NCBI GenBank assembly: GCA_039621445.1
Contig: CP154954.1
Span: forward strand, 25,990,954-26,054,953
DNA length: 64,000 bases
Source of the DNA: Euglena gracilis
Lineage: Eukaryota
Reading direction: 5' to 3'
Shown here: one piece after another, positions 4,035-64,000 of the stretch
Numbering within the stretch: the stretch's first letter is position 1
How the letters are laid out: each line of letters starts with the position of its first letter
Position numbers and translations under genes: made by a program
Notes under the pieces: generated by a model
Told to the model about the DNA's origin: nothing
Database searches by the model: none
Seen by the model: the letters and a program-made list of their open reading frames with translations, nothing else

Positions 4035-12712
<8,678 letters not shown>

Positions 12713-27500: not shown

Positions 27501-27864
27501 TCGGGAATGCCCTAATCCGGATGCGCGAAAGCGTGTTCAGTGTCTGCGGGGCTCGGCCTTGTCACGGGGTTCGGGTTCCTCCGCATTTTCAAGCCAAATG
27601 GGCAATTCACGGTCATTGGGTCCCAGTTCTGGCGGTGTAGCCCCCTGTTCTCGTTCCGCGATGAGCGCAGCCACGGTACCCCTCGATGTTGGTACCCCGC
27701 GGTGCCCCAGCCAAGAAGCGGGATTCCTATTGCGAGACATCGCGATCGCGTTCGCGAAGCAGATCACCCTCTTCGCGATCCTCATCAGGAAAATCCCATA
27801 CACCCGTGATGGTCGACGGGATACCCGCTCACCACGACGGTTTGAAGGGAAATGGGGAAACTGA
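24564..27864 (+). pseudogene. gag: gag of element A (frameshifted)
   Basis: WDGDPPIWRQFFRDWEYYW capsid-like segment at 26800-27279; decayed zinc knuckle CFLCNKSGLTSREC near 27470; start approximate. Confidence 0.6.
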
Positions 27865-30202: not shown

Positions 30203-30275
30203 GGCGGGACCTGGGTCTCGAACCCACGACCTCCCGCGTGTGAGCCCAGCACCTTACCGAATAAGCTACTCGAGC
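30203..30275 (-). ncRNA. tRNA-derived (Val-CAC-like) Pol III promoter segment in the TRIM 3' LTR
   Basis: GCTCGAGTAGCTTATTCGGTAAGGTGCTGGGCTCACACGCGGGAGGTCGTGGGTTCGAGACCCAGGTCCCGCC. A-box TAGCTTATTCGG, CTCACAC loop and B-box GGTTCGAGACC at tRNA spacing. Acceptor and anticodon stems are broken. Confidence 0.7.
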
Positions 30276-30893
30276 GATACTCGGCTTGGTACTACGCGCC
30301 GGCTACCAACCTCCGTAGGATCTCCCGTCTGCCGCACACACTCCCCTCCCAAGAGCCTTACTACACTAGCCCACTGCGTCACTATGGCCGTTTGCCCCTG
30401 CAGCTCGGGTTATGCCTCACACGGCCCTAGTTGGCTGAGTGCTTCTCACGAGTACTGCGTCACCAGGCTGCCGACCCCTGCAGCTCGGGTTTGCTATTGC
30501 CGGCAGTTTACGTGTTGTCGACTTCAACGGGCTCTGCCGCCTTGGAGCGTCCCCCTTTGCATCGGCTTGAGACTTTGGAACGGTGTAGGAGTTTCAGTCG
30601 CCCTAGACTCGGCGCGTCCGCCTCCGCCTTCCGGGCGCCGTGGGGTCAGGCTCTGATTTACCGGTTCGTGTTGCATTAGACGGGTTCCCCTGCTACGATG
30701 TTTACGTTGGTTGTCACCACCCGCCGTTGGACGGCCACGGGGCAGCTCATATTACTTGCCGTGGCTCGTCCTCAGGCGGGGAACTGCGCACATGGTCCGG
30801 CCAACCAGTGTCTCGTCCATTTGCGCAATTGCGCGCGCCGAACGATCCCCGCGGTATGCCCTCTGCCTGTACGGGATCGTTCAGGACTCACAC

Positions 30894-30966
30894 GGCAGGA
30901 CCTGGGTCTCGAACCCACGACCTCCCGCGTGTGAGCCCAGCACCTTACCGAATAAGCTACTCGAGC
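30894..30966 (-). ncRNA. tRNA-derived Pol III promoter segment in the TRIM 5' LTR
   Basis: Second copy of 30203-30275, differing by one substitution. Confidence 0.7.
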
Positions 30967-31628
30967 GATACTCGGCTTGGTACTACGCGCCGGCTACCAA
31001 CCTCCGTAGGATCTCCCGTCTGCCGCGCACAAAAACCTGGTATTGGTGCTGCTGGGCGACTACGCGACACCGTACCTACTTCAGGCCTTCGGGATTTCGA
31101 CTTGAAACCCAGTGGAACGAGGGGGACACCGCTGCTCGCTTACCCTGCCTCATGGGGTACGGTAGTTGGTGTAACAATGGGCATGGGGGTAACTTTCTCG
31201 GTCCACCGGGTGTAGAAAACGTTTGTAGGTATAGTTGGTAACGGGGAAAATCTTTTTGGAAAACGGTATAGAAACGGTATGGTCGTCGCGGTTGACGCCA
31301 CAGGTGATGAGAGTTTGTGGGGCAACGAACAGAATGGTGATGTGCGCAACCCATGGGAGTGCCAATCCACTACCAGCCGGTGCTGACATAAAAAGGGGTA
31401 TCCCAGAATTACTTCAGAACCATGGATTCCGGATTTATATCCCCATGTATCTGGAAAAATTTGCGGGTGGGGGGGCTGTGTGTGGTGCTTTGGGAGGAGG
31501 GATAGGACAATGTCCAAAAGGCATCCCAACTCACCACTACACATGGTGGTGATTCCCACTGACACTGGTTGTCGCACTGCACTGCTTTTTAGGTTTGGCT
31601 TCATATCGACCCTCCTCTTGACGGCTGG

Positions 31629-32400
31629 CACCTGTTCCGCGAAATTATTAATTTTTGCGGACGCATCCTGAGCAACGGGCAGCGTAAAGCCGCACCAAGC
31701 TATATGGAGGCAATTAAGAAATGTATTCGTGAGGTCATTAAGACTTTATCGCTTTTAAACGCATCCTTGGGATCAGCCCAATATTACGCGAGTTACATGC
31801 AACGCTTCACAAAAAATGGGATACCCCTAACCCGAAAGCTCAAATATCTGACACCCGATAACTCAAAAGTCATTTGGGATGACCAAATGTGCAAGGCCTT
31901 GAACAAAATTAACGTCTTGCTACTCGAGAACGTGGTTCTTGATACCGCGGATCCATACAAACCTTATGTCCTGGAAGTCGACAGCAGCGATTACCCTTTG
32001 GCGGGGTTCTCAGCCACCATAACGCGGCAAATGAGCTCCGACATGTGGCTTTCCTCAGGAGTAAGCTACCGGGCGACAACGGGAAAGGGCAGGTTAAATG
32101 GAACATCCCCGAAAACGAGACATATGTCATTGCGCTTATACTCCAGAAATTGTGCAGCTGGATAGCCAGCAGCTTGGTCCAGACACTCGTGTTGACGGAC
32201 CATGAGAGCCTTTAACACTGGAATAACGAGGACCTGAACAAGGCCATGTCATCAGTAGGCAGAAAATGTCCATGGCATGAGTTATTGAGCCAGTTTAACC
32301 TGGTGGTTTTTTATCCCCCGGGTCACATGCAAAAAGTTGCGGATCCCCCTGGTATTACCCTTGGAACCCGGATGATGGTGATGTCATTTTTCATGGCAGT
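31629..32400 (+). pseudogene. pol: RT C-terminus and RNase H of element A
   Basis: HLFREIINFCGRILSNGQRKAAP...DPYKPYVLEVDSSDY...LTDHES...WHELLSQFNLVVFYPPG..QKVAD. Confidence 0.75.
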
Positions 32401-32615
32401 CATGAGACTGACCAGTTCGCACGTACATACGAAGCAGAGGAAAACATGCTCGATTCACTACCCGTTTCCCGTGTATATCTCAGCATCGCCATTTCACCAT
32501 TGTGTGGAATTCGCCGGCGTGGCCGCACTGCCTGACCACGTCGCAATACGCGTACGAGACTCCTACCCCCCTGTTTTTCTCGAGAACGGGATTATTCGCG
32601 TGGTACCATTGTGAA

Positions 32616-33075
32616 TAAACCCCCCAACAAATAAGACCCAGGTCTTATTTTTTGGGTCTGTTGCTGGAAGCCTCCAGGGGGGGTCTTATTTTTGGGGGGG
32701 GGTCCTTTTTTTCAATTTTTTCTTGACCGACCCGGGTCCGAAAAAAACACCATTTCTCAGGTTCCCAAGAGGACTAAAATTTTTCCTTCGGCGCTTCGCG
32801 CATGTGAAAATTGGTGTAAATTGACATTTACCATGTTTTTTGCAGTTCCAAAATACAAAAAGATTTGAAATTTCATCATTTTTGTGTATGAAACTGGGTT
32901 TTTTGGTCATTTTTCAGGGGAAATTTTCACCGTCCCCGGCGCTTCGCGCCGTAAAGGGGGGTCTTATTTATGGGGGTGGTCGTATTTTTGGAATTTTGCT
33001 CGATCGGCCCAGGGGGGGTCTTATTTTTGGGGGGGTCTTATTTGGGGGGGGGGTCTTTTTTTGGTGGGGGGTTTA
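32616..33075. mobile_element. MITE with TA ends (Tc1/mariner-pogo-like) inserted in pol of element A
   Basis: TAAACCCCCCAACAAATAAGACCC is an inverted repeat of GGGTCTTTTTTTGGTGGGGGGTTTA; internal GGGGGTCTTATTT repeats. Confidence 0.75.
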
Positions 33076-42622: not shown

Positions 42623-42830
42623 TGGACGTCTGATAATATTCTTTTGTTTTTCTTGAAATCCTTGCACTCCCAATTTTCTTGAAATCCCAATTGACCAAAA
42701 GAAGTAAACACAAATCAATGTGAACACATAGAACCGAAGCCAGCAGTCTGCGGGGGAAAAGTTCGAATTAGGAATACAAAAGTCAGTTCGGCAGTTGGTA
42801 AGGTAAGTAGGTCAGCAAATAGTTCGCACA
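42623..42830 (-). repeat. 3' LTR of element B
   Basis: Direct repeat of 57743-57950; GGGGGG immediately upstream on the minus strand. Confidence 0.85.
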
Positions 42831-43221: not shown

Positions 43222-46200
43222 GGGGGGGTAGATCTGGCCTGGGGGGGGGGGGGGGTAGTGGGCCGACCCTAGGGTCGGCCCAATACGACCCTGGGGTCGC
43301 TAAAGTCGCTAAAGTCGCTAAGGTCGCTAGGGTCGCAGTGGGCCGACCCTAGGGTCGCCCATCCTAGGGTCGTGGGCCGACCCTAGTGTCGACCCTAGCG
43401 TCGGCCCACCCCACGACCTCGCCCCCCCCCCATTCAAAAAAAATTCAAATTTTTTTGATGTTTTAGGCCTTCAAACACAAAGAAAACAAACTAAGAAAAA
43501 TTAATATTGATTACTGATGCTAAAATACACCCCAAAATCACTACGTGACACAAGGGATTAGGTGATTTTGGGGCATTTGAACAGTTGCGCAAAACGAGGG
43601 ATTTGCCCCCCAAAATGACTTGAAAACACAACGGACTTGCCCACCAAAACGACTTGGAGACACAAGGTATTTTATTATTTTCGGGCCCCCGATCAGATGA
43701 ACAACACAAAGAATTTGCCCCCCAAAACAACTTGGAAACACAAGGGATTTGCCCCCCAAAACGACTTGGAGACACAAGGGATTTTTTTATTTTGCGGCCC
43801 TCGATCGGTTGTACAACACAAGGGATTTGCCCCCCAAAACGATTTGTAACCACAACGGACTTGCCCCCAAAAACGACTTGGAGACACAAGGGATTTTGTT
43901 ATTTTGGGCCCCTCGATCAAACGAACAAAACAACGGATTTACCCCCCAAAACGATTTGGAACCACAAGGGATTTGCCCCCCAAAACGACTTCGAGTCACA
44001 AGGTATTTTGTTATTTTGGGGCCCTCGATCGGTTGAACAACACAAGGGATTTCCCCCCCCCAAAGCGATTTGAAAACACAACGGACTTGCCCCCAAAACG
44101 ACTTGGGGACACAAGGGATTTTTTTTTGGGGCCCTCGATCAATTGAACAACACAACGGATTTACCCCCCAAAATTATTTTGAACCACAAGGGACTTGCCC
44201 CCCAAAACGACTTGGAAACGCAAGGGATTTCTTTATTTTGGGGCCCTCGATCAGTTGGACAACACAACGGGATTTACCCCCTAAAACAACCTGGCCACAC
44301 AAGGGATTTGCCCCCCAAAACGACTTGGAGACACAAGGTATTTTTTACTTTGGGGCCATCGATCGGTTGAACAACACAAGGGATTTGCCCCCCAAAACGA
44401 CTTGGAAACACAAGGGATATTATTAATTTCAAGCCCTCGATCAGTTGGACAACACACGGGATTTGCCCCCCAAAACGACTTGTAAACCCAAGTGATTTGC
44501 CCCCCAAAACGACTTGGTGACACAAGGGATTTTGTTACTTTCGGGCCCTCGATCAATTGAACAACACAACGGATTTACCCCCCAAAACGACTTGGAACCA
44601 CAAGGGATTTGCCCCCCAAAACGACTTCGAGTCACAAGGGAGTGTATTCTTTTGAAGCCCTCGATCGGTTGAACAACACAAGGGATTTGCCCCCCAAAAC
44701 AACTTGGAAACACAAGGGACTTGCTGCCCAAAACGACTTGGAGACACAAATGATTTTATTATTTTGGGGGCCTCGATCGGTTGAACAACACAAGGGATTT
44801 CCCCCCCCAAAACGACTTGAAAACACAACGGACTTGCCCCCCAAAACGACTTGGGGACACAAGGGATTTAGTTTTTTTGGGGGGCCCTCGATCAGTTGAA
44901 CAACACAACGGGATTTACCCCCAAAGCGATTTGGAACCACAAGGGGTTTGCCCCCCAAAACGACTTGGAGTCACAAGGGATTTTATTATTTTGGAGCCCT
45001 CGATCGGTTGAACAACACAACGGATTTGCCCCCCAAAACAACTTGGAAACACAAGGGACTTGCCGCCCAAAACGACTTGGAGACACAAGCTATTTTATTA
45101 TTTTGAGGCCCTCGATCGGTTGAACAACACAAGGGATTTGGCCCCCAAAACGACTTGGAAACACAAGGGATTTTGATATTTACGGGCCCTCGATCAGTTG
45201 GACAACACAAGGGATTTGCCCCACAAAAACACCTTGGAAACACAAGGGATTTGCCCCCCCAAACGATTTGGAGACACAAAGGATTTTGTTATTTTGGGGC
45301 CCTCGATCAGATGAACAACACAACGGATTTACCCCCCAAAACGATTTAGAACCACAAGTGATTTGCCTCCCAAAACGACTTGGAGTCACAAGGGATTTTA
45401 TTATTTTGGGGCCCTCGATCGGTTGAACAACACAAGGGATTTCCCCACCAAAACGATTTGAACACACAACGGATTTGCCCCCTAAAACGCCTTGGGGACA
45501 CAAGGGATTTTGTTTTTTATTGGGCCCTCGATCAATTGAACAACACAACGGATTTATCCCCAAAACGATTTGGAACCACAAGGGCTTTGCCCCCCAAAAG
45601 CACTTGGAGTCACAAGGGATTTTATTATTTTGGAGCCCGCGATCGGTTGAACAACACAAGGTATTTGCCCCCAAAAAAAACGTGGAAACGCAAGGGATTT
45701 GCCCCCCAAAACGACTTGAAGACACAAGTGATTTTATTATTTTGGTGCCCTCGATCGATTGAACAAAACAAGGGATTTGCCTCTCAAAACGACTTTGACA
45801 CACAAGGGATTTTATTATTTTGGTGCCCTCGATAAGTTGGACAACACAAGGGATTTGCCCCCCAAAACGACTTGGAGACACAGGATTTGCCCCCCAAAAC
45901 GACTTGGAGGCACAAGGGATTTTGTTTTTTTGGGCCTCGATCAATTCAAAAACACAACGGATTTACCCCCCAAAACGATTTGGAACCACAAGGGATTTGC
46001 CCCCCAAAACGACGTGCAGTCACAAGGGATTTTATTATTTTGGGGCCCTCGATCGATTCAACAACACAAGGGATTTCACCCCCAAAACGATTTGAAAACA
46101 CAAAGAACTTGCCCCCCAAAACGACTTGGGGACACAAAGGATTTTATTATTTTGGTGCCCTCGGTCGGTTGAACAAAACAACGGATTTGCCCCCCAAAAC

Positions 46201-49200
46201 GACTTGGAAAAACAAGGGACTTTTGTATTTTCGGGCCCTCCATCAGTTGGACAACACAAGGGATTTGCCCCACAAAAACACCTTGGAAACACAAGGGATT
46301 TGCCCCCCAAACGATTTGGAGACACAAAGGATTTTGTTATTTTGGGGCCCCCGATCAGATGAACAACACAACGGATTTACCGCCCAAAACGATTTGGAAC
46401 CACAAGGGATTTGCCCCCCAAAACGACGTGGAGTCACAAGGGATTTTATTATTTTGGGGCCCTCGATCGGTTGAACAACACAAGGGATTTCCCCCCCAAA
46501 ACGATTTGAAAACACAAAGAACTTGCCCCCCAAAACGACTTGGGGACACAAGAGATTTTATTATTTTGGTGACCTCGATCGGTTGAACAAAACAAGAGAT
46601 TTGACCACAAAACGACTTGGAAACACAAGGGATTTTATTATTTTCGGGCCCTCGATCAGGTGGACAACACAAGGGATTGGCCCTACAAAAAAACCTTGCA
46701 AACACAAGGGATTTGCCCCCCAAAACTATTTGGACACTCAAGGGATTTTGTTATTTTGGGGCCCTCGATCAGTTGAACAACACAAGGGATTTACCCCCCA
46801 AAACGATTTGGAACCACAAGGGATTTGCCCCCCAAAAACGACCTCGGTTCATAAGGGATTTTATTATTTTGGGTCCCTCGATGGGTTGAACCACACAAGG
46901 GATTTGCCCCCCAAAACGACTTGGAAACACAAGGGATTTTGATATTTACGGGCCCTCGATCAGTTGGACAACACAAGGGATTTGCCCCACAAAAAAACCT
47001 TGGAAACACAGGGGATTTGCCCCCCAAAACGATTTGGAGACACAAGGGATTTTGTTATTTTGGGGCCCTCGATCAGTTGAACAACACAACGGATTTACCC
47101 CGCAAAACGATTTGGAACCACAAGGGATTTGCCCCCCAAAAACGAATTGGATTCATAAGGGATTTTATTATTTTGGGTCCCTCGATCGGTTGAACAACAC
47201 AAGGGATTTCCCCCCCAAAACGATTTGAAAGCACAACGGACTTGCCCCCCAAAACGACTTGGGGACACAAGGGATTCTGTGTTTTTTTGTGCCCTCGATC
47301 AATTGAACAACACAACGGATTTACCCCCCAAAACGATTTGGAACCACAAGGGATTTGCCCCCCAAAACGACTTGGAGTCACAAGGGATTTTATTATTTTG
47401 GGGCCCTCGGTCGGTTGAAGAACACAAGGGATTTGCCACCCAAAACAACTTAGAAACACAAGGGATTTGCCCCCCAAAACGCCTTGGGGACACAACGGAT
47501 TTTATTATTTTGGTGCCCTCGATCGGTTGAAAAACACAGAGGGATTTGCCCGCAAAAACAACTTGGAAACACAAGGGATTTGCCCCCCAAAACGACTTGG
47601 AGACACAAGGGATTTGCCCCCCAAAACGATTTGGAGACACAAGGGATTTTGTAATTTTGGGCCCTCGATCAATTTAGCAAAACAACGGATTTACCCCCTA
47701 AAACAACTTGGAACCACAAGGCATTTGCCCCCTAAACGACTTGGAGTCACAAGGGATTTATTATTTTGTCGACCTCCATCGGTTGAACAACACAAGGGAT
47801 TTGCCCCCCAAAACGACTTTGCAACACAAGGGATTTGCCCCCCAAAAAGACGTGGAGTTACAAGGGATTTTATTATTTTGGGGCCCTCGATCGGTTGAAC
47901 AACACAAGGGATTTCCCCCCCCCAAAACCATTTGAAAACACACAGATCTTGCCCCCCAAAACGACTTGGGGAGACAAGGGATTTTTTATTATTTTGGTGC
48001 CCTCGATCGGTTGAACAAAACAAGGGATTTGCCCCCCAAAAAGACTTGGAAACACAAGGGATTTTATTATTTTCAGGCCCTCGATCAGTTGGACAACACA
48101 ACCGATTTGCCCCACAAAAACACCTTGGAAACACAAGGGATTTGCCCCCCCAAACGATTTGGAGACACAAAGGATTTTGTTATTTTGGGGCCCTCGATCA
48201 GATGAACAACACAACGGATTTACCCCCCAAAACGATTTGGAACCACAAGGGACTTGCCCCCCAAAACGACTTGGATTCACAAGGGATTTTATTATTTTGG
48301 GTCACTCGATCGGTTGAACAACACAAGGGATTTCCCTCCCAAAACGATTTGAAAACACAACGGACTTGCCCCCCAAAACGACTTGGAGACACAAGGGATT
48401 TTGTTTTTTTTGGGCCCTCGATCAATTGAACAACACAACGGATTTACCCCCCAAAACGATTTGGAACCACAAGGGATTTGCCCCCCCAAACGACGGGGAG
48501 TCACAAGGGATTTTATTATTTTCGGGCCCTCGATCGGTTGAACAACACAAGGGATTTCCCCCCCCCCAAACGATTTGAAAACACAAAGAACTTGCCCCGC
48601 AAAACGACTTGGGGACACAAGGGATTTTACTATTTTGGTGCCCTCGATTGGTTGAACAAAACAAGGGATTTGCCCCCCAAAACGACTTGGAAACACAAGG
48701 GATTTTATTATTTTCGGGCCCTCGATCAGGTGGACAACACAAGGTATTTGCCCCCCAAAACGATTTGGACACACAAGGGATTTTGTTATTTTGGGGCCCT
48801 CGATCAGTTGAACAACACAACGGAATTACCCCCCAAAACGATTTGGAACCACAAGGGATTTGCCCCCCAAAAACGACTTGGATTCATAAGGGATTTTATT
48901 ATTTTGGGTCCCTCGACCGGTTGAACAACACAAGGTATTTGCCCCCCAAAACGACTTGGAAACACAAGGGATTTGCCCCCCAAAACGATTTGGACACACA
49001 AGGGATTTTGTTATTTTGGGGCCCTCGATCAGTTGAACAACACAACGGATTTACCCCGCAAAACGATTTGGAACCACAAGGGATTTGCCCTCCAAAAACG
49101 CCTTGGATTCATAGGGATTTTATTATTTTCGGGCCCTCTATCGGTTGAACAACACAAGGGATTTCTCCCCCCCAAAACGATTTTAAAACACAACGGACTT

Positions 49201-51418
49201 GCCCCCCAAAACGACCTGGGGACACAAGGGATTTTGTTTTTTTTGGGGGCCCTCGATCAATTGAACAACTCAACGGGATTTACCCCCAAAACGATTTGGA
49301 ACCACAAGGGATTTGCCCCCCAAAACGACTTGGAGTCACAAGGGATTTTTTTATTTAGGGGCCCTCGATCGGTTGAACAAAACAAGGGATTTGCCACCCA
49401 AAACAACTTGAAAACACAAGGGATTTGCCCCCCAAAACGCCTTGAGGACACAACGGATTTTATCATTTTGGTGCCCTCGATCGGTTGAAAAACACAAGGG
49501 ATTTGCCCCCAAAAACAACTTCGAAACACAAGGGATTTGCCGCCCAAAACGACTTGGAGACACAAGGGATTTGCCCCCCAAAACGATTTGGAGACACAAG
49601 GGATTTTGTAATTTTGGGCCCTCGATCAATTTAACAAAACAACGGATTTACCCCCAAAACGACTTGGAACCACAAGGCATTTGCCCCCTAAAAGGCCTTG
49701 GAGTCACAAGGGATTTTATTAAGTTGTCGACCTCCATCGGTTGAACAACACAATTGATTTGCCCCCCAAAACGACTTTGCAACACAAGGGATTTGCCCCC
49801 CAAAACGACTTGGAGTCACAATGGATTTTATTTTTTTGGTGCCCCCGATCGGTTGAACAACACAAGGGATTTGCCCCCCAAAACGACTTGGGGACAAAGG
49901 GGATTTTGTTTTTTTTGGGGGGGCCTCGATCAATTGAACGACACAACGAATTTACCCCCAAAACGATTTGGAACCACAAGGGATTTGCACCCCAAAACGA
50001 CTTCGAGTCACAAGGGACTTTATTATTTTGGGGCCCTTGATCGAATTGAACAACACAAGGGATTTACCCCCCAAACAAAACATGGAAACACGAGGGATTT
50101 GCCCCACAAAACGACTTGGAGACACAAGGGATTTTATTATTTTGGGGCCCTCTATCGGTTGAACAAAACAAGGGATTTGCCCCCCAAAAGGACTTGAAAA
50201 CACAAGGGATTTTGTTATTATCGGGCCCCGGATCAGTTGGAAAACACAAGGGATTTGCCCCCCAAAACGACTTGGAACCACAACCGATTGGCCCCCCAAA
50301 ACGACTTGGAGTCACAAGAGATTTTATTCTTTTGGGGCCTTCGACCGGTTGAACAACACAAGGGATTTGCCCCCCAAAACGACTTTGCAACACAAGGGAT
50401 TTGCCCCCCAAAACGACTTGGAAACACAAGGGCTTTTATTATTTTAGGGCCCTCGATCGGTTGAACAACACAAGGGATTTGCCCCCCAAAACGACTTGGA
50501 GACACAAGGGATTTTAATATTTTGGCGTCCTCGATCGGTTGAACAACACAAGGGATTTGTGCCCCAAAACGACCTGGCAACACAAGGGACTTGCCCCCCA
50601 AAAGACTTGGAGACATAAGGGATTTTACTATTTTGGGGTCCTCGATCGGTTGAAGAACACAAGGGACTTGCCCCCAAAACAATTTGGCAACACAAGGGAT
50701 TTGCCCCCCAAAACGACTTGCAGACATAAGGGATTTTATTATTTCGGGGCCCTCGATCGGTTGAAAAAAACAAGGGACTTGCCTCCCAAAACAACTTGAA
50801 AACACAAGTGATTTGCGCCCCAAGACGACTTGGAGACACAAGTGATTTTATTATTTTGGGTCCTCCGATCGGTTGGACAACACAAGGGTTTTGACCCCCA
50901 AAACGACGTGCAAACACAACGGACTGGCCCCCCCAAAACGACTTGGAGACACAAGGGATTGTAATATTTTGGGGTCCTCGATCGGTTGAACAACACAAGG
51001 GATTTGTGCCCCAAAACGACATGGAAACAACCGGGATTTCATTATTTTGGGGCCCTCGATCAGTTGGACATCACAAGGGATTTGCCCCACAGAACAATTT
51101 GAAAACACAAGGGACTTGCCCCCCAAAACGACCTCAAGTCCAACCTCAAGTCCAAGTTCAATTCCTGTTCAAATGGGCAAAAAAAATTCTCCACAATTTT
51201 TTTGTGGGGGAGGCGAGGTCGTGGGGTGGGCCGACCCTAGGGTCGGCCCTACGGTCGGCCCACGACCCTAGGACGGTCGACCCTAGGGTCGGCCCACTCC
51301 ACATCCTGGGGGAGGGGGTCGACCTTAACGACTTTAGCGACCCTAGCGACCCTAAGGTCGTATTGGGCCGACCCTAGGGTCGGCCCACTACCCCCCCCCC
51401 AGGCCAGTTCTGGGAGCC
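43222..51418. mobile_element. Non-autonomous Mutator-like (MULE/foldback) TIR element carrying a satellite array
   Basis: ~220-bp TIRs (43222-43447 versus ~51195-51418), GG...CC ends, and a 9-bp direct repeat TGACTGAAA at 43213-43221 and 51419-51427. Confidence 0.8.
43549..51135. repeat. ~7.6-kb satellite built from 34-bp and 44-bp monomers
   Basis: A = CACAAGGGATTTGCCCCCCAAAACGACTTGGAGA; B = CACAAGGGATTTTATTATTTTGGGGCCCTCGATCGGTTGAACAA. Mostly AAB or AB order. Confidence 0.95.
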
Positions 51419-51541
51419 TGACTGAAAGCACGATCAAAATATTTGGGGGGGGGGGCTGTCTCTTGTGATGCCAACTCCCATTCACATTTCGAAACGTCGC
51501 AAAACATTCTGAGCGCCTGGCGTAGGACCGATTGCAAATTT

Positions 51542-54500
51542 TTATCCACAATAATTCTTGAAAACCTCATTCATTCTGCCTCCTGGTTGCACAAACGAAG
51601 CCACAGGCTCCCATGTACTGCCGCTTGCCGGAAAATTCTCCAACCAAACCAAAAATTTCCATCCCCCTTGGTACTTCTGCTTCAACATCTGGTAAACATT
51701 GTAAAAACCCAGTTGTGCTTGTTCTTCTTCTGACATCTGGAGGGGAGGTTCCCCTCCCTGGTCTGACATGGGGGAGTCACCCTCCACTGGGGCTTCCACA
51801 ACCACATCACCGGTCAAAAGGTCTGCGTCTTCTTCCAAAAGACTTTCTTCGTGCAAAGCAACCTCCCACTTTTTTGCACAAACCCAAAGAGACATAAATG
51901 ACCCCTCCCAAAGATGGACTGCTTGCAATTTGCACTGAATTGAACCTCGATTTGAGAACCCGAAAAAGTCCTTGCCAGGGGGGGAAAGCTTGTGCCATGA
52001 TTTGTTTGGCCATCTTTTGTTGTGCACCAAAACATAGTCATCTTCTTGAATTTTGGCTGGTACCCTCTCTTTGTTTGCACTCTCAAAATGTTTTTTTTTC
52101 TCAATTCTTTCAACCTCTGGGAAGCTCTTTCTTTAATTTCAACTTGGTTCAAAGCCAGGAATGGGTTTCTGGGTTTGTCGCTTGTTCTGGTGGTAATTCA
52201 AACCTCCAACCTGGTCTTCCTAAAAACCCCATTTCATGGGGTGATAACATTGTTGTGCGGGAAATCTGTCAACCTATCAAAACCGTGCAATACGGAATAA
52301 GTTGAACCCAATTTTTGTCCTTGACAGAAAGGCTCAAAGCTCTCATATTCTGCAAAAACATTTTGGTGACATTTTCAACCAAACCGTTTGACCTGGGGTT
52401 CCAGGGTAACGAAAACAAAAATTTCACGTCTAGAGCTTTAAAGGCTGTCTGGTAAAAACCACTGGGCTGCCTGAATCTCACGTCGTTGTCAGACCTCACA
52501 ACGGACGGTTTTCCAAAAACAGAAATCCACCGGTGCAAAATAAGTCTCAAAACACCTTCTCCGGTTAGCGTTTTTTGTGTGGGGATGAATTGGCAAAAAT
52601 GGGACAAATTGTCGACCATAGTCAGCACATAGTCAAATCCATTGTAGGGGTCCATTTGCACAAAATCCAAACACAAAAATTCATTGCTCACTGTTGGAAT
52701 CGGTAAAGAACCCACCTTTCCACGGTGACTGGGGCGATTTTGTTTTGAAATGGGGCAAATTTCATATGTCATCACAATGGCTTTGCAAATTTCCAACATG
52801 TCTTTCTTGGAAACCTTGGACTGAAAATGGCTCAAAAAAAACAACAGTGTCCTTTCAGCACCAACATGGTTGCTTGCCCTGTGACATTCATCCAAACAAA
52901 CCTTCAACAAATGAGACAGAACAACCAATTTTCCTTCACAGTACATGGCCTTGGCAGATCTGAACCAAAACTCATTGTCAATGAAACAAGGTTTCGAAAC
53001 CTCCACTTTCTCCAAAAATTATTTCAGTTCTGAACTTAAATATTGCTTTTCAGACACTTGCAATCTGGGGGACAAACTGAAAATCTTTTGCCAAAGCAGG
53101 TCAAACTGCACATCCATTTTCTGAAAAGCGTTCCTTGTTTCTTCCTGAAAACGAATTTCAAATTTGTTTGTTTTGTTCTCAAAATCAGCACGAGACAAAA
53201 AATCACACAGCTCATTTTTGCAACCTGCCACATGCACGATATTCAGTTTGAACTGGTGCAAAAACACATACATCCTTCTCAGCATTTTGTTTAGGGGGGG
53301 GTTCACCCTTCAGAAAAGAGGTGGCTGCCTCATTTTTTGTCATCCACACAATTGGCAGATTTTGCAAATCCTTTTTTGTGAAGCAATGGTCAGCACACCA
53401 CTCAAAAATTCCTTTTCCCAGGTGGTGTATTTTTTTCTCGCCTCATTCCATTTCCAGTTGTAGTGCCCCAAAGGAACCAACCTCATTTCACTGGGGTAGT
53501 TGCTTTTCAAGGTTCCATCCACTTTCACACCACTTGTTCGAAAATTGTCAGGTATTTGTGTTTGTTGGAGGGTTTGCCACTGAAACAAAGCAGAACCACC
53601 TCCCAAATCCGAACTGTCAGTCACCAAAACAATCTCTCCTGAACTCCTGGGGGTACCCAAAACATCGAGGGATGATAATTTGCTTTTCAAAGCATTCAAA
53701 CAACTCTCCTTCTTTTCAGTCCACCTCCATTTCACATTCTTTTTCAGAAGATATTTCAGTGGGGCTGAATCAAAGATAAACCCTTTCATGTGTCTGCGGT
53801 AAAAATTCATGGCTCCCAAAATTCGCCTAAGATCCCTTTGATTCTGAACTCGAAAACTCAAAATTAGTTCAATGTTCCTCTTGTTTGCCTGCCACATTCC
53901 CCATCCCAAAGAGAAGCCCAGGTAGTCAATAGTCTGATTCAGAAAAGAACGTTTGCTCAATTTGATTCTCACTTGGTTCTTTCTGCAAACTTCAAACCAC
54001 TTTTCCAAAACATACAAATGGTCCTCCTCAGAATTCGCACCAAGGCAGGGGTGGTCAACAACCTGTTGTCAGTAGGAAAGCCAGTGTCCCACCTTTTCAA
54101 AATCTCTCTCACTCTCAAATCCGTTTTGCATTGGGATGTTAGGATTTCCATCAACTCCTGAAAAATCCCTGGGGCATTCATCACCCAACCAGTTACATCT
54201 TTTGGTCCTTATTATTGGATCTAAAACACCTCCCTTAAAGAATGCAAAATGCAGACAAATTTGCTGCTCTTTTTCTGATTGGGATTTGCCAATACCCACT
54301 CCTCATGTTCAGCGTACTTTTGAACCGACACTTGGCCAAACTTTCAATCAGAATTTCCATGTTTGGAAAAAAACCTGCAAGTGCTTTGCCTCTGGAATTC
54401 AATTTTCCATAATGAATGACCAACCTTCTGGTACTTGACCCTTTTTTGTCCACCAAAAATGTGGGGCTGCACACCTGATGGATTTCACCAACTGGGAATT

Positions 54501-56286
54501 GCTCAAACAACCCTGACTTAAGCAATTCTTCACACTGAATGTCAATGTCTTTTTCATCCTCCTGGTGCATGGGCCAACACTTTTGCCTTAGGGGTTTCCC
54601 TTCCCATTCAGTCTCAAACTCGATTTCCATCAAAACAGGCAGGGATGAAGCCTCAGAAATTGTGGGCAATGGTCCAAAAACATCAGAAAATCTCACCAAA
54701 AGCTCATACAACCTGGGGTGGTCTCTGAATTTCTCAACTTCTTTCTTAAATTCTCCACTCAGGTTCTCAGTAAAAAATTTGCTGCTTTCTTCATTAGCCT
54801 TTTTCTGGGCCTCCAAAGTCCACATCTTTTCATGTAAATCTTGGGAAATGCTTTTGACTTCAGCCATCTTGATTGTTGCCTTTGGAGTCTTCATAGGTTT
54901 TGCAAACTGAATAAAAAAAAAAAATTGGAAAAAAAAAATGAAAAAAAAAAAAAAACAATCACTTTCTACATCTTTTCTCACCTCCTGAAAAAGACTCAGC
55001 TCACTTTCAATGTCCTTTGTCAATTCAGCCAAAAAAAATGAAGTTTTCATGCTCACTCATTGGTTCAAACACCACCACATTGTCCAACCATTCTTTCACC
55101 TTTCTTCTGACTCCTTGGGGCGAACACTCTCCAAAGGAAAACTTGGACTTTAAAAAACTTTCTGGGCTGAAGGTGGATTGACAGATTGTTGTGCATGCTG
55201 CTGGGGGGGGGGAACATCAGGAAGATCTGGGAAATCAACTTGAATTTCATTATCCACGGTGGGGTACTTTCTGTTCTCACCTCTCAGTTCATCCAAACTC
55301 CAGTTTCTTAAAACTTTCCTGAGCCAACTGACAATTCTGGGGTCCAAAAGCTCAAAATCCACTTTTAATTGCACTGTGTCCACCACACTCACAAAAGTGT
55401 TCCACAGGGTGGAAGGAAAAGCCTTTTTACACCTGTCACCCACAAACAAGGGAACCCCACTCGGAATTTTCTCCCTGGCAACCGTTACCCTTTCCAGCAG
55501 GGGGGACCAGTACTGGTCCACCCAGTCTGGGTGCACCAGGACCACTTTTGTTTCTTAAAGGCACAACTTGGTCACCACTTTGCTTAGTTGGCTGAAGAGG
55601 TGGTTTGCCCACAGAAACTTGCAAGCACCAATGTCACACAACAATTTTTCCCAGGAATACTTGTAGGCTGAATTCCCTTTCGTCATGTACAAAGACTGTG
55701 TGTGGTTCAGGTGGTTTGCAAAAGGATCAATGCAAATTTGGCCCTGAGAATTCTTCAATTCTTCCAAAGCTTCTGACTTCACTGGCTTTACCAAAGTGTA
55801 ACTTTCTGTCTTGAAAAGTCTGAAAATTCTTTTGATAGTGTGGTCTCCATCATGGCTCTGAAGTAAAAACTCCTCACCCTCGATGATGATTCTGGGGGGT
55901 CTGGTCAGCAACCCTCCAAAAAACTCACTCTCTGTGAAGTCAGTCCCCAAACCTGCCTCAAAGGCACAAGTATCCACCACAACAGCTTTCAATTTCAAAA
56001 TCTTGGACCCAAACTGCAAACACATCTCACAAGTTCCTTCTGAGAAAATGTACTCGCCGTTGCCGATTTGCAGGGGTGCGGCAGCACTTCGTTGAATTTT
56101 CCCCTCAGGGTCACACTTCTTACAAACTGCAGTGATGATGGCCCCTGTGTCCAAAATGGCTTGAACATCCTTTCCATAAACCTTCACTGGCAAAAGGTAA
56201 GTTTTACACACCATCTCGAGCAATTGCAAAGCATCAGCTTTTCTCTTTTTGGGGTTCTCACCCTGGGGGGTAACCTGGGTTTGCAC
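51542..56286 (-). pseudogene. pol: pol of element B: protease, Dam-like MTase, RT, RNase H, integrase, chromodomain (frameshifted)
   Basis: AILDTGA (AP); IDPFAN..YSW..LWANHLFSQL..VLVHPDW..YW (MTase); SPTFLVDKK..RLVIHYGKLN..MRSGYWQI (RT); LVTDSSDLGGG (RH); CHRASNHVG..CLDFV..RSDNDVRF..SNGLVE (INT); FLVWLENFPASGSTWEP (chromodomain). Confidence 0.9.
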
Positions 56287-56359
56287 TCCCTGGGGTTGAA
56301 CAGAAGGGGTCCCCTTACCTGCCCCCTTCTGGGCTGCTGCCTTCTTTTTCTCAAACTTT

Positions 56360-57306
56360 TCTCTTGACCAACATTTGTCTTCATAATGCCCTTTTTTGTG
56401 ACAAAATCGACAGAAAATTGTGGCTGCAAATCATGGGGCTGGGGTGTCATCAGCTTTTATTTCACCCTTGCCTTTGCCTTTTCATTTGCCTCTTCCTTTT
56501 CCACCAGATTTTCCACCTTTTCCAGATTTTGTGACACTTTCACCAACTTTTTCTGATTGGTCAGGTGGTCTTTCAATCAGGGGTCTGAGTTTTTTTTTTT
56601 TCAGCAAATTCCTCTACAACCAATCTTCAGAACTTTTTTCCAAAAATGTTTTCCTTAAATCTGTGAATGTCTCAGAACGATGTTGATGAAATCTGTCTGC
56701 CCTTATGTCCGCATACATTCTGGGGTGTAATTTCGTCAGCAAAACAAGAAACTTTTCCTGTTCACTCATGGCCTGGGGGCTCAATCTGGCCATCAAATTG
56801 TCCAACTCAATGAAACGTTTTTTGATGTCTTGGGGTTCAGGGTTCTGTGAAAGTGCTGGAAATTTCTCAATGGCAGATCTTAAAGTCATGTCATTTTCCA
56901 GTGTTGGGAACAGTTTTGCAATTTCCAACAGCACCATTTCAAAATCATCATTCTAATCAATCACTTTTTCAACCTGTTTTTTCACCTTGGGGGTGCAACA
57001 TTCCAACAGCCAATCCTTTTTCTGGACAATTCCAAATGCAACAGCACCAGTTAACCTCAACCATCTGCCAAAATCTTTCAAAAACTCTGGCCAGTTTGCA
57101 CCAGCAAACTCTGGCAATTTCACAGGGGGTAATCTTGAACTTTGGGTTGAACTTTGGCTGGGGTTGCTGGAGTTTGGTTCCACAATTTGTTTCAAAAATG
57201 TTTCAACCTGGGTGATGGGGTTCAGGGTAAACACAGACTGACTGCTGGTGGCTGATTTGATTTCCAATTCTTGCACCCTTCTTTCCAAATCTTCAATGGA
57301 AGACAT
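56360..57306 (-). pseudogene. gag: gag of element B
   Basis: PPVKLPEFAG.NWPEFLKDFGRWL capsid-like segment; CCHC knuckle CRFCHKKGHYEDKC at ~56370-56415; internal stops. Confidence 0.8.
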
Positions 57307-57742
57307 TTCTGCAGCTCACTTTCAAAAAACTCAACTACTGGCTCTTTGAAACTGGACACTGGGAAAAACACTGGCAAACCCAAAAAGGTGAATAAAACTG
57401 AAGAAACCAGAACAGAAAACCAACCACTTGGCTCAGGACCAGGTCAGCAAGATGATGAAGATCTTGTCTCCACCAGGATCTTGTTCTGGACACCAAGAAG
57501 AACTGCAGCACCAGCAGCTTCAACAACCAAGTAACCAGCACAACAACTGTTGAAAAATTCTCCACTGTGAACCACAGCCTCAATGTCAACTTCGTGTTGA
57601 AGATGTTGGGCTGTACCAGCAACTGGGTTAACTTTGCCTTCAGGAAGTACACCTTCTGGAACTTCAACAACCAGTAGAACAATGACCAGTCTCTTTGAAG
57701 ACGTCTTGGACGATTGGAACAACAAACCTCTGCGACCAACTT

Positions 57743-57950
57743 TGGACGTCTCAGAATATTCTTTTGTTTTTCTTGAAATCCTCGGACTCCAAATTTTCTG
57801 GATATCACAATTGACCAAAAGACGTAAACACAAATCAATGTGAAGACATAGAACCAAAGCCAGCCGTCAGCGGGGGAAAAGTTCGAATTAGGAATACAAA
57901 AGTCAGTTGGGCAGTTGTTAAGGTAAGTAGGTCAGCAAATAGTTCGCACA
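57743..57950 (-). repeat. 5' LTR of element B
   Basis: TGTGCGAAC...GACGTCCA, followed after 4 nt by the PBS. Confidence 0.85.
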
Positions 57951-58111: not shown

Positions 58112-58498
58112 TGTGCGCAGCCTGAAGCCTGAATTAGGACTGAGCGCGCGCGCTGCACACTGTAATATGTGCTTTTTATGTTCAGTCAAACCTCATGAGT
58201 TGATTGCTGGGCCCATGGGTCGTGGCCCCTTGGCATATATCTGGACCATGGGACTAACTGAGGACTTGGAGATTTGAGTTTTGTGCTGTGGTTGAAGTTT
58301 GGAAATTTGAAGTGGAAGTTGCTTGCCAATGGGTGGCAAAGCAAGGCCCAAGGCGAAGGCAAAACCCAAGGCAAAGCCAAAGCCAGCCAAACAGGGGGCC
58401 CGGGGTTGGGCGGCGGAAAAGGTGTGGATTGCGAAAAGAACCCCCACCCCCGGCGAAGCCCCTGTTTCACAATCAACTCACCTGTAACGACCAGGCGG

Positions 58499-60878
58499 AT
58501 GACACAGTGGAGCATGCTGGACTGTTGCATGCACCAGTGGTGCATCCTGGCGCTGGACATGGTCAACATGTTCAAGATCCACATTCCGGTCATGGGCCAT
58601 GCCGCAGATGCACATGTGGTGCTTGCTGCAGATGTGTGGGACGCACATGGAGTGCACGCCGCAGATGCCTCACCTGCACATTGGGCGCATCCTGGGGATG
58701 GCCTGACTGGAGCTGGAGATGGAGACGACGGAGATGTGCATGCAGCGGAGGCCAGGTCGGGGCAGGTGGTGGATTGTGTGTGGCGGACAGCCTTTTTTAG
58801 AGCAATATCCAGAGATTTCTGAATTAGGCATTGCCAGAAAAAAAGGGTTCAGACCAAAATCTTAATCTGGGAATTTTGTGTTTCATTCTGTATTACAGTG
58901 GCAGCCTATGGCAAACAGTGTATCAGTTTGCTTGGACTTGTTCATGGGCATTGGCAAATCTTCAGGATTTGTTCCCCTGCTGTGCAAAAGATTTTGGAAA
59001 CTCCAGTGATGCAGGGGGAAAACGCCAGTGGAAAAGACCAAGTTGGCAGTAGGAGACTGTCCAGCAATGCACATTACAAGTTTGGCCTGGGCCAGAAGTT
59101 TGTCACCCCAAGTGTCATTAGACAAGAGCTGTCATAACATGCTGAGCCGAGGACCCCAAACACACACAACCTGATATGAGAGTTGTCCAGTACAAACGAT
59201 AATGTTGGGCCACGAAGGGGATTGACACTCATACTGTGATCTGGTGGTCTGACATTACATTGTCATTGGTGGGCCAATGGCTGCAGAGGCTGGCAGTACT
59301 TTGCACTGTACGGTGCTGCAAATGTCGTTGAAGATTGCATGTCATTGTCATTGAACTGGAGATGGTGATGAGCCGTGAGGCACGTACAACAGAATCGAGC
59401 ACAGGTGGAGCATCGAGATGAGCCGTGAAGCACGTACTGGAGAACGAGATAGTGGTCATTTGGTGCCTTGTACATCCCAGTTGTTTACCATGGGTTGTGG
59501 GTCAACCGATAAAACCATTTGCCGTGAAGATTTGGCATTGATGTGACGCTGCCTGCTGGTGGTGTTCTGCGGCAGTAAACGTCGCGGTTTGATCGTTTTC
59601 TCCGTCTTCGTCTTCTGCGTGTCTGTCTATTCTCCATGTTCTGCGAGGGGCTCAGTGTCTCGTCTGTCCGCTGTGCTGCGAATGCCTGGGCAATTGCGCA
59701 GCAATTGTTCAGGAAGGGAGGGGGGGTGGCGGACAGCCTTTTTAAGAGCAATCTCCAGAGATTTCTGAATTAGGCATTGCCAAAAAAAGGTTCACACCAA
59801 AATCTTAATCTGGGAATTCTGTGTTCCATTCTGTATTACACTGGCAGCCTATGGAAAACAGTGTATCAGTTTGCTTGGACTTGTTCATGGGGATTGGCAA
59901 ATCTTCAAGATTTGTTCCCCTGCTGTGCAAAAGATTTTGGAAACTCCACTGATGTAGTGGGAAAATGCCAGTGGAAAAGCCCAAGTTGGCAGTGAGAGAC
60001 TGTCCAGAATTGCACATTACAAGTTTGGCCTGGACCAGAAGTTTGTCACCACAAGTTTCATTGGACAAGGGCTGTCATAACATGCTGAGCCGAGGACCCC
60101 AAACACACAGGATGCCCTGGCCAGGCATGCTGAAGTTGGACAGGATGGAGACACGACCCGGCCCCGTACAACCACTCAGGGTTTGGCCACTCAGAAAGCC
60201 GGCTGTGCTTCGGCCGCCGAGAGAGGGTCCCCCAGAAGAGTTTCGGACGCTGTGGGGACGCGCAACATTTCGCTTGACGACATTGGGGATGACGACATGG
60301 GGCTCGCCGACATCGTGGATGACGGAATTGGGAATGCTGACATCGAGAATGGCGGCATTGGGCATGCAGCTGCAGACCACAACAGTGCTCCGGCCGTTAG
60401 GGCAAGGGAGATCAAAACCGACAGCCGTGCTGCGGCCGCTGTGGTCCCTGAGTTCGCCAATGTGGGTGCCGTACCGACGGAGATCTAAACCCCCAGCTGT
60501 GCTTCGGCCGCAGGGGTCACTGAGTTCTCCGCCCTAGCGGTGACTGGAATCCTGCCTGGAGAAGGACGGAAGTGTGATGGATTTTGCTGGGCTGATCTGG
60601 GATGCCACTGTGGGATAAGTGACAGCCAGCCCAATGTCGGTGGGCAGGACATCTCCGAAGTACCACCTGGAAGCAGTGCATCGTCGCCCAGGGGGGAGGC
60701 TCCGCCGGCAGCAGTGGACGAGTCCATAGCGGAGGCTCGACGACTGGCTGTGCGGTACGAGCGGGAAGCCCGAGATCGACACTGGGATGCGCTGTCGGAG
60801 ATAAGGCCGCTGACGGAGACGTTGAAGCGAAAGAGGCGGAAGGACCGCCTGCTCCACCACCAGGGATGGTGGGAGTGA
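58499..60878 (+). pseudogene. Orphan Asp/Ala/Gly-rich ORF inside element C, split by element D
   Basis: Removing 58775-60113 joins ..SGQVVD|ALARHAE.. in frame with ORFs 60183 and 60540, with one internal stop. Confidence 0.45.
58775..60109 (+). mobile_element. TRIM-like LTR element D
   Basis: ~390-bp direct repeats (58775-59168 and ~59721-60109), PBS-like TGATATGAGAG at 59172, PPT AGGAAGGGAGGGG at 59711, and flanking GGAT duplication (58771-58774 and 60110-60113). Confidence 0.75.
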
Positions 60879-62233: not shown

Positions 62234-62656
62234 GAGGTGTTCTGGCTGCACAGAGAGTCATTTATAAATTACCCAGCAATTTTCGTGGTGAGGTGAGTGT
62301 GCGCAGCCTGAAGCCTGAATTAGGACTGAGCGCGCGGGCTTCACATTGTAATCTGTGTTGTTTCTGTTCAGTAAAATGTCATGAGTTGATTTCTGTGCCC
62401 ATGGGTCGTGGCCCCCTGGCACATATCTGGACCACGGGACAGACTGAGGACTTAGAGACTTGAGTTTTGTGCTGTGGTTGAAGTTTGAAAATTTCACGTG
62501 GAAGTTGCCTGCAAATGGGTGGCAAAGCAAGGCCCAAGGCGAATGCAAAACCCAAGGCAAAGCCGAAGCCAGCCAAACAGGGGGCCCGGGGTCGGGCGGC
62601 GGAAAAGGTGTGGATTGCGAAAAGAGCCCCCACCCCGGCGCCGCCCCTGTTTGACA

Positions 62657-63130
62657 GTGTCTTTCCTGGGTCGTGCATTGACTTTTCCACAATCATCCTG
62701 ATCCCACGCATTGTCAGTAGGTCGATGAGGGAAGCTGCCCTCAACTTGGTGGCTTCTGCTGTTTCCCCCAGCAGAAGGATGTCGTCCACATACCACACAT
62801 GTGGTATGTTTTTCTGCTTCAGCCAGGAGCTCTCAGTGGTTTTGTCAATTTCTGTCACCACCAGGTACTCAAAGACCAACGAAATGGCGGGGCCTGGATC
62901 TGAAAAGCTCCTTCCCTGAGCCTGAACCGCATTAACCTCTGAATGTGGGGATGAACGTGCAAGTGGTGGAAAAAAGATTTGATGTCCACGGTGACCACCC
63001 AGTGCAATTCTTTTTGCTGCAGAGTCTGCAGCAGGGTCTGCCAGGTGTCTTTTTTGTGTCGTGGAATTTTGTAGCGCTGGTTCAGGTTCCTGAGGTGTGT
63101 GATCAACCGGTTTCTTTTTAATCTCTGGTT
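62657..63130 (-). pseudogene. DIRS-type reverse transcriptase core
   Basis: RLITHLRNLN..VTVDIKSFFHHLHVHP..RLMRFR..FQIQAPPF.WSLS.WW..VWYVDDILLLG..EKS; frameshifted. Confidence 0.8.
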
Positions 63131-64000
63131 AACGTTGGTGTCCACTGGCCGGTTTTTCCCCACTCCTCGTTCGTGAGCGGCCTTATGGCACCTGTTTTCA
63201 AGTACTCTGTAACGGTTTCTTGTGTGGCTGGTGTGGACCATTCGGGCTCCGCACTGCGAGATGGTAAGGACCTGCTTTCTTTGCCGGTTGTTCTGTTTTG
63301 GTGTGTTTGTGCGTGCGCGGGGGGTGCTTCTTACTGCTTTTTGTTGCAGGAGTTGGCTGCTTCCTAATTTTGCCCTTCGACCTCAAGAAGAAAGAAGTTC
63401 ACTGTTACAAGTTCAACTGGAATTAATTACAAGGAGTATTGCATTCACAAAGACTATCACTAGCATCAACTGGTCGGTGAAAACCGGGTAGGTCGGTGAA
63501 AAAACCAATTCTGAAACAAAAAAACCTGAGAAAAATGTATTTTGCAACTTAACTCCTTTCATAACACTAAAACCCTAACCTCGCTGCAACGAGCCCCGCC
63601 CCTGCGTCTGACCTTGAAGTCTCAGAACCCTTTGCAACCAGTCAATGGGGGGGGGGGACCAAACTTTTTTCGGACACCTCGACTTCAAAGAGGAAGAATT
63701 TAACTCTTCGAGTTCAACTGGAACCAGAAGCATTGCAATCACGCAGACAAAAGTCAATTGCTGGACTTCTATGAAGAAGATCTTCCAAGAAATTCAAATT
63801 GCCAAGAAGAACTTCAAAGGACTTCCAAGAGAGCAGCTGAAGCTGAAGCTGGGGAAGTTGGAGACACAGCAGATGCTGCAGAACCTGGAGCGGCGGCAGC
63901 AGCACCTCAGTGCGTGGCCGTCGGAACCCCCCACCCCCCCCCCACCACATCAAAGCTTTCAAAATCACCCATTCAGAAAGGTAACAGCCATGGACCATGG

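Follow-up and report, generated by a model that had tools for sequence, protein, structure and literature searches.

The 64,000-nucleotide stretch of Euglena gracilis DNA analysed here (the window) contains, on its minus strand, a decayed retrotransposon, element B, in which a segment resembling Dam N6-adenine methyltransferases lies between the aspartic protease and the reverse transcriptase (RT). This segment is very probably a dead copy of a Dam-like domain that forms a regular and conserved part of the polyprotein in one Ty3/Gypsy chromovirus-like lineage. Judged from the sequences of element B and its relatives, the order in this lineage appears to be gag (with a CCHC motif), protease, Dam-like domain, RT, RNase H, integrase and chromodomain. 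The window copy is an inert fossil, belonging to a lineage whose members keep the catalytic motif.

The Dam-like domain comprises about 180 residues and occupies the same frame as the aspartic protease (Table 1). In the frame of the protease open reading frame (ORF 56430-55555, minus strand), the peptide ESYTLVKP is followed by ICIDPFANHLNH, YMTKGNSAYKYSW and FLWANHLFSQLSKVVTKLCL, then by a stop and by ETKVVLVHPDWVDQYWSPLL, so that the motif-bearing peptide which an earlier note on this DNA had placed directly after the protease is indeed found there. The sequence P0001 (227 residues, with the stop read as X) contains IDPFAN, FLWANHLFSQLSKVVTK and VLVHPDWVDQYW. The earlier note had given the domain a span of 55330-55810; the profile and the structural model place it from about 55809 to about 55261, roughly 70 nt past the end given there. 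ORF 55554-55150 begins at the base immediately after the stop of ORF 56430-55555; because the two ORFs are contiguous and share one frame, no frameshift correction is required inside the domain, and the frameshift previously proposed there is instead a single in-frame TAA (55557-55555). The text following this stop reads ETKVVLVHP, rather than MVLVHP as had been quoted. By tblastn, the 64-kb window holds a single copy of the domain.

Table 1. Features of element B in the window (coordinates are window positions).
Feature	Position	Strand	Basis
Internal region of decayed Ty3/Gypsy chromovirus-like element B, gag ATG to pol stop	51541..57306	-	collinear with L001
gag CCHC zinc knuckle, CRFCHKKGHYEDKC	56371..56412	-	translation of ORF 56430-55555
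Aspartic protease, DTG present	55936..56190	-	Pfam match over ORF residues 81-165
Dam-like (PF05869-type) N6-adenine methyltransferase domain, inactivated here	55261..55809	-	phmmer relatives, PF05869 matches of relatives, AlphaFold, fold matches
D-P-F-A motif (family consensus D-L-F-A)	55717..55728	-	conservation, motif census, strand in the model
Catalytic-motif position, N-H-L-F in place of family N-P-P-F	55594..55605	-	sequence and motif census
In-frame TAA inside the Dam-like domain, private to the window copy	55555..55557	-	translation, relatives, reads
Reverse transcriptase, split by a frameshift near 54214-54056	53910..54447	-	L001 match and Pfam
RNase H	53250..53723	-	Pfam RT_RNaseH_2 (E 1.6e-11); 52% identity to L001 RNase H
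Integrase, H2C2 zinc-binding part and DDE core	52395..52883	-	Pfam rve (E 1.9e-6, under the gathering score)
C-terminal chromodomain	51557..51712	-	56% identity to the L001 chromodomain

Two motifs and the stop codon describe the state of the domain in this copy. In the AlphaFold model, D-P-F-A lies at the end of a beta strand (residues 32-35); D35 and F37 are each at least 90% conserved in an alignment of 54 sequences, and DLFA is present in 75 of the 120 sequences that cover the D-x-F-A position. The acidic residue of this motif is a putative SAM contact. Among 138 family sequences covering the catalytic motif, NPPF occurs in 103 and an NPP-aromatic motif (NPP[FWY]) in 111, with conservation of 90% or more for each of N76, P77 and P78 in the 54-row alignment; altered forms appear in a minority of relatives (NPRF in 7, NPLF in 3, others once each), and NHLF is seen in the window alone. 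The (D/N)-P-P-(Y/F/W) signature is thus present in the family and missing from the window copy, as the earlier note had supposed in describing a decay of NPPF to NHLF and in proposing a look at this motif across the family. At the position of the TAA, the residue is E in 105 and D in 27 (132 in all) of the 146 sequences that extend over it. Base 55557 is a different letter, giving a sense codon, in essentially all of the read depth of other copies from the same organism, and it is the sense-codon letter in 10/10 RNA reads of run X24.

The remainder of element B is equally decayed. Nine in-frame stops lie between the gag ATG at 57306 and position 54237, from gag into RT, and pol occupies three reading frames with at least two frameshifts. 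The window sequence flanking the element was searched for a direct-repeat or LTR pair and none was found; on its 3′ side the element adjoins a 112-bp satellite array. Because of the NHLF motif, the stop within the domain, the nine stops overall, the frameshifts and the lack of an LTR pair, the window copy is incapable of methylation. The family to which it belongs is present in the same organism as thousands of diverged contigs: two DNA runs yielded 3890 and 2264 contigs, respectively, that are at least 85% alike over 3.1 kb. Two raw RNA runs yielded 26 and 106 reads, none of them at least 99% alike to the window copy, and these represent low-level transcripts of other family copies only. The family is also strongly depleted in CpG, with an observed/expected ratio of 0.25 in element B (TpG/CpA 1.40), compared with 0.89 in the L001 ORF, 0.76 in L002 (both relatives are described below) and 0.97 in element A, the other Gypsy element of the window. 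Such depletion fits repeats that have long been cytosine-methylated. In the 64-kb window, no Rfam family was matched, a dinoflagellate spliced-leader motif was looked for and is absent, and no host gene was found among ten other long ORFs.

The assignment of the domain to the Dam-like methyltransferases is built on its relatives. A phmmer search of 1.84 billion representative proteins returned 247 matches at E<=1e-3, of which 106 reach <=1e-10 and 15 reach <=1e-30, the best at 1.6e-55, and 247 relatives place the similarity far beyond chance, which we dismiss as an explanation. A comparison with the Pfam Dam family (PF05869), suggested in the earlier note, gave nothing for the window copy on its own, the peptide matching no Pfam family (E<=10) and no PDB sequence, but succeeded for its relatives. 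PF05869 is matched by 49 of 54 aligned relatives at E<=0.01 and by 15 of the 54 at E<=1e-5 (the other 39 miss this threshold), as well as by L001 and the protein P0153; it is matched by all ten long relatives (E 5e-7 to 9e-4), one of which reaches the gathering score of 28.1 bits, while most relatives score below it. Since the window copy itself has no Pfam match, its assignment to PF05869 is transitive. PF05869, a phage DNA methyltransferase family, is the sole Pfam family matched by the aligned relatives; a weak match to PCIF1_WW (E 0.0028) was recorded for one relative (P0025). A profile of the 54 relatives matched nothing among PDB sequences, which include no PF05869 member. In a profile-profile comparison by hhalign, the family aligned over 131 columns with the domains L003-L008, which follow RT as in DIRS elements (probability 98.3%, E 1.8e-14). 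Together with the matches to adenine-methyltransferase folds described below, these results support the Dam-like identity that had been proposed from the motifs.

The context of the domain in the window is that of a Ty3/Gypsy element. By tblastn, element B is collinear with residues 51-1983 of the 1988-aa polyprotein of L001 (window 57303 to 51494, in three frames). The gag CCHC motif aligns also in the relatives P0006, P0009, P0015 and P0098. The protease is matched by Pfam gag-asp_proteas (E 1.4e-4) and RVP (E 1.6e-3), both under their gathering scores. L001 RT matches 54447-54214 at 49% identity before the frame changes, and the C-terminal part of Pfam RVT_1 is found in ORF 54068-53340. The zinc-finger part of the L001 integrase matches 52883-52737 and its rve part 52688-52395. 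The window chromodomain ORF alone had no Pfam match; the chromodomains of L001, L002 and P0153 match Pfam Chromo at E 2e-5 to 5e-5, with L001 at 24.9 bits against a cut-off of 25.1. Tblastn and Pfam thus give element B the pol order protease-RT-RNase H-integrase, with an H2C2 and DDE integrase and a C-terminal chromodomain, and the DDE integrase and chromodomain ascribed to the element in the earlier note are supported by the rve match in the window and by the likeness of its chromodomain to that of L001. Pfam scans of element B ORFs revealed no tyrosine-recombinase family.

The relatives, including loci from a search seeded with a 10-row alignment, show how regularly the domain occurs in this setting. 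Of 158 domain-holding sequences, 28 come with recognisable context: a protease lies upstream in 26 and an RT in two (L005, L006). The metagenomic locus L001 is a single open frame running gag-protease-Dam-RVT_1-RNase H-H2C2-rve-Chromo with NPPF intact, and its contig bears the same 70 nt at both ends (99% identity), which fits an assembly running from LTR to LTR. L002 and P0153 have the same order from the Dam-like domain through RT, RNase H and integrase to the chromodomain. L001 is 48% identical to the window and 45% to L002 in the Dam-like domain, with corresponding values of 49% and 43% in the protease, 49% and 56% in RT, and 53% and 52% in rve, as against 34% and 26% in the linker that follows the Dam-like domain. 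On these figures the domain appears to be conserved as tightly as the protease, RT and integrase, which suggests that it does something the element needs. As a side observation, the sequence P0152 gave an ESM Atlas lead (0.76) to retroviral-like aspartic peptidases, to which we attach no evidential weight.

These architectures also decide on the alternative that a DIRS fragment was inserted, or mis-assembled, into a single Gypsy copy of a family that normally lacks the domain. There is just one copy of the domain in the window, with fragments of other retroelements nearby, as such an event would have it, and the earlier note had named intact family members without the segment as the observation that would speak for it. 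Instead, the open frame of L001 includes the domain, 26 independent relatives join protease and Dam, and L001, L002 and P0153 show the full downstream order, so that a one-off insertion can be excluded and the presence of the domain in a Ty3/Gypsy-type pol, as first proposed, is upheld. The domain is moreover in frame with the protease and without flanking repeats, contigs from the two DNA runs cover it as deeply as gag and protease, and Dam domains in DIRS order are just 26-27% identical to the window type. With relatives and reads both against it, we give this alternative almost no credence.

The fold is predicted with good confidence. An AlphaFold model built on the 54-row alignment reached a pLDDT of 88.8 and a pTM of 0.80, residues 11-190 being confident, and the predicted fold is that of class I SAM methyltransferases, with adenine-N6 enzymes as the nearest. 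Among predicted viral structures (BFVD), 22 matches were obtained at E<=1e-3; seven of the best 13 are named phage DNA N6-adenine methyltransferase or methyltransferase, and six are without a name. The phage DNA N6-adenine methyltransferases rank best (E 6e-7 to 1e-5), as exemplified by Serratia phage Tsm2 (TM 0.51 by query and 0.84 by target, rmsd 3.2), and PCIF1-like proteins of giant viruses rank lower. In the PDB, nearly all of the best 50 fold matches are SAM methyltransferases. The earlier note would have abandoned a methyltransferase in the event of no methyltransferase-fold match; SAM methyltransferases are matched in both collections. Scores in the PDB are moderate, the best reaching Z 8.3 with a TM of about 0.4, and the enzymes that lead the list methylate adenine in RNA rather than in DNA: PCIF1 (Foldseek E 6.3e-4; VIA Z 8.3 over 128 residues, rmsd 3.2, 18% identity) and KsgA (Z 7.5; KsgA, Dim1 and Erm at 7.0-7.5) outrank T4 Dam, at 6.7, and E. 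coli Dam, at 6.6, by differences of 1-2 that lie in the tie range of the fold-comparison tool. Since no PF05869 member is among the PDB sequences, the PDB ranking cannot reveal the true nearest fold.

Retrotransposons of this general kind have recently been described under the name DAM-LTR, and include chromodomain-bearing 'DAM-chromovirus-like' elements (Fernandez-Moreno et al., bioRxiv 10.64898/2026.05.21.726589, May 2026). The main text of this preprint distinguishes five lineages (Chlorophyta, Chloro-Ochrophyta, Ichthyosporea, Pyropia and Euglena) and reports DAM-LTRs as absent from Metazoa and Streptophyta. It also reports that, compared with bacterial Dam, eukaryotic DAMs are missing the N-terminal parts for catalysis and target recognition, and that they bring about no rise in 6mA when expressed in dam-deficient E. 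coli. In the model put forward there, 6mA on the cDNA or hybrid recruits the host AMT1 and keeps new insertions permissive (Fernandez-Moreno et al., 2026). This was the sole source on adenine methyltransferases in non-DIRS LTR elements that our full-text literature search found; an Ectocarpus TE paper, in the text available for it, mentions a methyltransferase of another type, linked to ParB and carried by a DNA transposon.

For intact members of the element B lineage, the domain would transfer a methyl group from SAM to the N6 of adenine. Its most likely substrate would be adenine in the nucleic acid of the element itself, as cDNA, RNA:DNA hybrid or new insertion, and 6mA on a new insertion might then mimic a host mark of permissive chromatin, as in the preprint model (Fernandez-Moreno et al., 2026). 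We consider such a DNA-6mA mechanism a serious candidate, with chances somewhat short of even. The strong CpG depletion of the family is awkward for a role in permissive chromatin, since it indicates that the family did not escape the decay that follows cytosine methylation.

The domain could alternatively be an RNA adenosine methyltransferase, forming m6Am in the manner of PCIF1/CAPAM or m6A in that of KsgA, Erm and METTL5, and marking the genomic or messenger RNA of the element rather than DNA, for instance to aid its stability, translation or packaging or to help it evade host sensing. The order of the solved structures, with PCIF1, KsgA, Dim1 and Erm above both Dam enzymes, points this way, as do the PCIF1-like giant-virus proteins in BFVD, the PCIF1_WW match of P0025 and the NPPF-type motif itself, which is the form found in PCIF1. 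The missing gain of DNA 6mA in E. coli would also be in keeping with an RNA substrate (Fernandez-Moreno et al., 2026). Set against this, the sequence matches of the family are limited to PF05869, itself a family of phage DNA methyltransferases, BFVD places the phage DNA enzymes above the PCIF1-like proteins (with a target TM of up to 0.84), and the order of the solved structures turns on tied Z scores in a collection without PF05869 members. On balance we regard an RNA substrate as unlikely.

More improbable still is a role without catalysis, in which the domain would bind nucleic acid or SAM, or sit between protease and RT as a spacer or an assembly module, its chemistry being vestigial throughout the lineage. 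The Dam activity of eukaryotic transposable elements is still only putative, and both the negative E. coli expression result and the missing N-terminal catalytic and target-recognition parts are compatible with lost chemistry, as far as the main text of the preprint describes them (Fernandez-Moreno et al., 2026). A minority of family members do have altered motifs, many of which may derive from dead copies like that in the window. The retention of NPP-aromatic in 111 of the 138 sequences, with its three leading residues each conserved at the 90% level or above, is hard to explain without catalysis.

LTR elements with a Dam domain are therefore, on the evidence of the preprint's main text, an already described kind, of which element B is a further member: like DAM-LTRs, it has a Dam domain alongside RT and DDE integrase and lacks a tyrosine recombinase. 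The supplements of the preprint may already list its family. The DAM-LTR screen used hmmsearch at E<=1e-5 (Fernandez-Moreno et al., 2026), a threshold that most members of the protease-Dam clade fail to reach on PF05869 even at a lenient database size, and the clade may for this reason be under-sampled there; profile screens with strict thresholds under-count it. Whether the protease-Dam-RT chromovirus clade is in fact a further large and old DAM-LTR lineage, largely missed by that screen, high in copy number and CpG-silenced by its host, is more doubtful, and we put it forward as a tentative possibility. Should it hold, and should the host have neither AMT1 nor 6mA, the link between DAM-LTRs and 6mA-bearing hosts that the preprint draws would be broken, and another role would be indicated, such as methylation of element RNA or of the RNA:DNA hybrid. 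The role of the methyltransferase domain in DIRS elements is a long-standing question, which the 2026 preprint has extended to LTR elements. The window contributes to it a well-defined protease-Dam-RT arrangement, L001 as an intact natural reference, evidence that constraint on the domain equals that on the core enzymes, and a host whose copies of the family are very numerous yet have undergone CpG decay.

Four known systems can be set beside element B. PCIF1/CAPAM provides the best match among solved structures and shares the class I fold, at 18% identity over 128 residues; at the sequence level there is nothing beyond the one weak Pfam match in P0025. PCIF1 has additional helical and WW parts. 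The phage Dam enzymes of PF05869 have the N/D-P-P-aromatic motif in common with the element domain and are its best matches among predicted structures, and differ in that the element domain is embedded in a retroviral-type polyprotein.

Closer are the DIRS1-type elements, whose Dam-like domain is homologous to that of the window, with the same motifs (D-L-F-A, W-A-N-P-P-F-S and P-x-W) in the hhalign comparison with L003-L008. The domain follows RT/RNase H in DIRS order (L005, L006) and lies between protease and RT in the element B lineage; DIRS elements have a tyrosine recombinase in place of the DDE integrase of element B, which also bears a chromodomain. Between the window and the L005 and L006 ORFs, similarity is limited to the Dam segment, and DIRS-order domains score 48-53 bits on PF05869, compared with 19-30 for the protease-Dam clade. 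A phylogenetic comparison with DIRS methyltransferases, as the earlier note had advised, took the form of a quick tree of 94 rows without an outgroup, in which a split with 100% SH-aLRT separates the two orders, all 21 protease-Dam rows falling on one side and the DIRS-order rows on a long branch.

The nearest counterparts are the DAM-LTRs. Like element B, they combine a PF05869-like Dam domain with RT and DDE integrase in a Ty3/Gypsy pol, some lineages having a chromodomain as well. According to the main text, their Dam, like that of the element B lineage, is a relative of the DIRS domain, conserves the Asn-Pro-Pro triplet and has putative activity (Fernandez-Moreno et al., 2026). What sets the element B clade apart is its low range of PF05869 scores, its strong CpG depletion and the protease-Dam-RT order, which is seen in this lineage and is not described in the main text of the preprint.

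Among the measured parts of the window, CpG depletion is strongest in the element that carries the Dam-like methyltransferase domain, a decayed Ty3/Gypsy chromovirus-like copy. Over positions 51494-57315, this element has a CpG observed/expected ratio of 0.25, with a TpG/CpA value of 1.40 and a GC content of 0.43, whereas the ratio is 0.97 in a second Gypsy-like element, element A (measured over 26600-33000), and 0.59-0.75 in the remaining measured parts of the window. Cytosine-methylation decay therefore seems to have been far stronger in the Dam-bearing family.

Other repeats and retroelements of the window are listed in the table. A tblastn search with the window's Dam-like peptide (P0001) as query found no Dam-like segment in element A. 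The reverse-transcriptase fragment adjoins an ORF with a YVDDILL motif and is unrelated to the reverse transcriptase of L001, an intact metagenomic relative of the Dam-bearing element. The satellite unit is composed of 34-bp and 78-bp sub-repeats, and the array ends approximately 400 nt short of the 3′ end of the Dam-bearing element; long 'ORFs' across it (PPKTTW.HKGF...) are repeat artefacts. Immediately upstream of the gag of the Dam-bearing element lie three dispersed repeat pairs of 91-93% identity, the first of which could be a piece of the LTR of this family.

Repeats and further retroelements in the window
Feature	Position	Strand	Details
Microsatellite, long (TG)n/(CA)n	~6000-6450		translations CVCV.../THTH...
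Element A, second Gypsy-like element	26647-32165	+	gag with CCHC knuckle; RT_RNaseH_2 match
Satellite array	44000-51119		>7 kb; 112-bp unit
Dispersed repeat pair 1	57743-57950 / 42623-42830		
Dispersed repeat pair 2	58112-58471 / 62298-62656		
Dispersed repeat pair 3	58780-59166 / 59726-60109		
Reverse-transcriptase fragment	62379-63382	-	Pfam RVT_1, E 2.5e-5

Outside the window, three protein relatives of the Dam-like domain (P0020, P0042 and P0055) fall into a subclade of six sequences with 100% SH-aLRT support in a tree without an outgroup. Downstream of this domain, P0055 has a weak Pfam match to aspartic protease, and P0020 and P0042 show a protease-like D[TS]GA stretch in the alignment. 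These three proteins would have a Dam-protease order, the opposite of the protease-Dam order of the window element.

A further arrangement is found at L006 (1391-8590), a locus on a marine metagenome contig of 65% GC. No tyrosine recombinase was found among the ORFs scanned there. Because the RT-Dam ORF adjoins a P4-type phospholipid-flippase gene, this element is placed in a eukaryotic genome; the ORF has a strong Pfam Dam match (53 bits), with Dam following RT as in DIRS elements.
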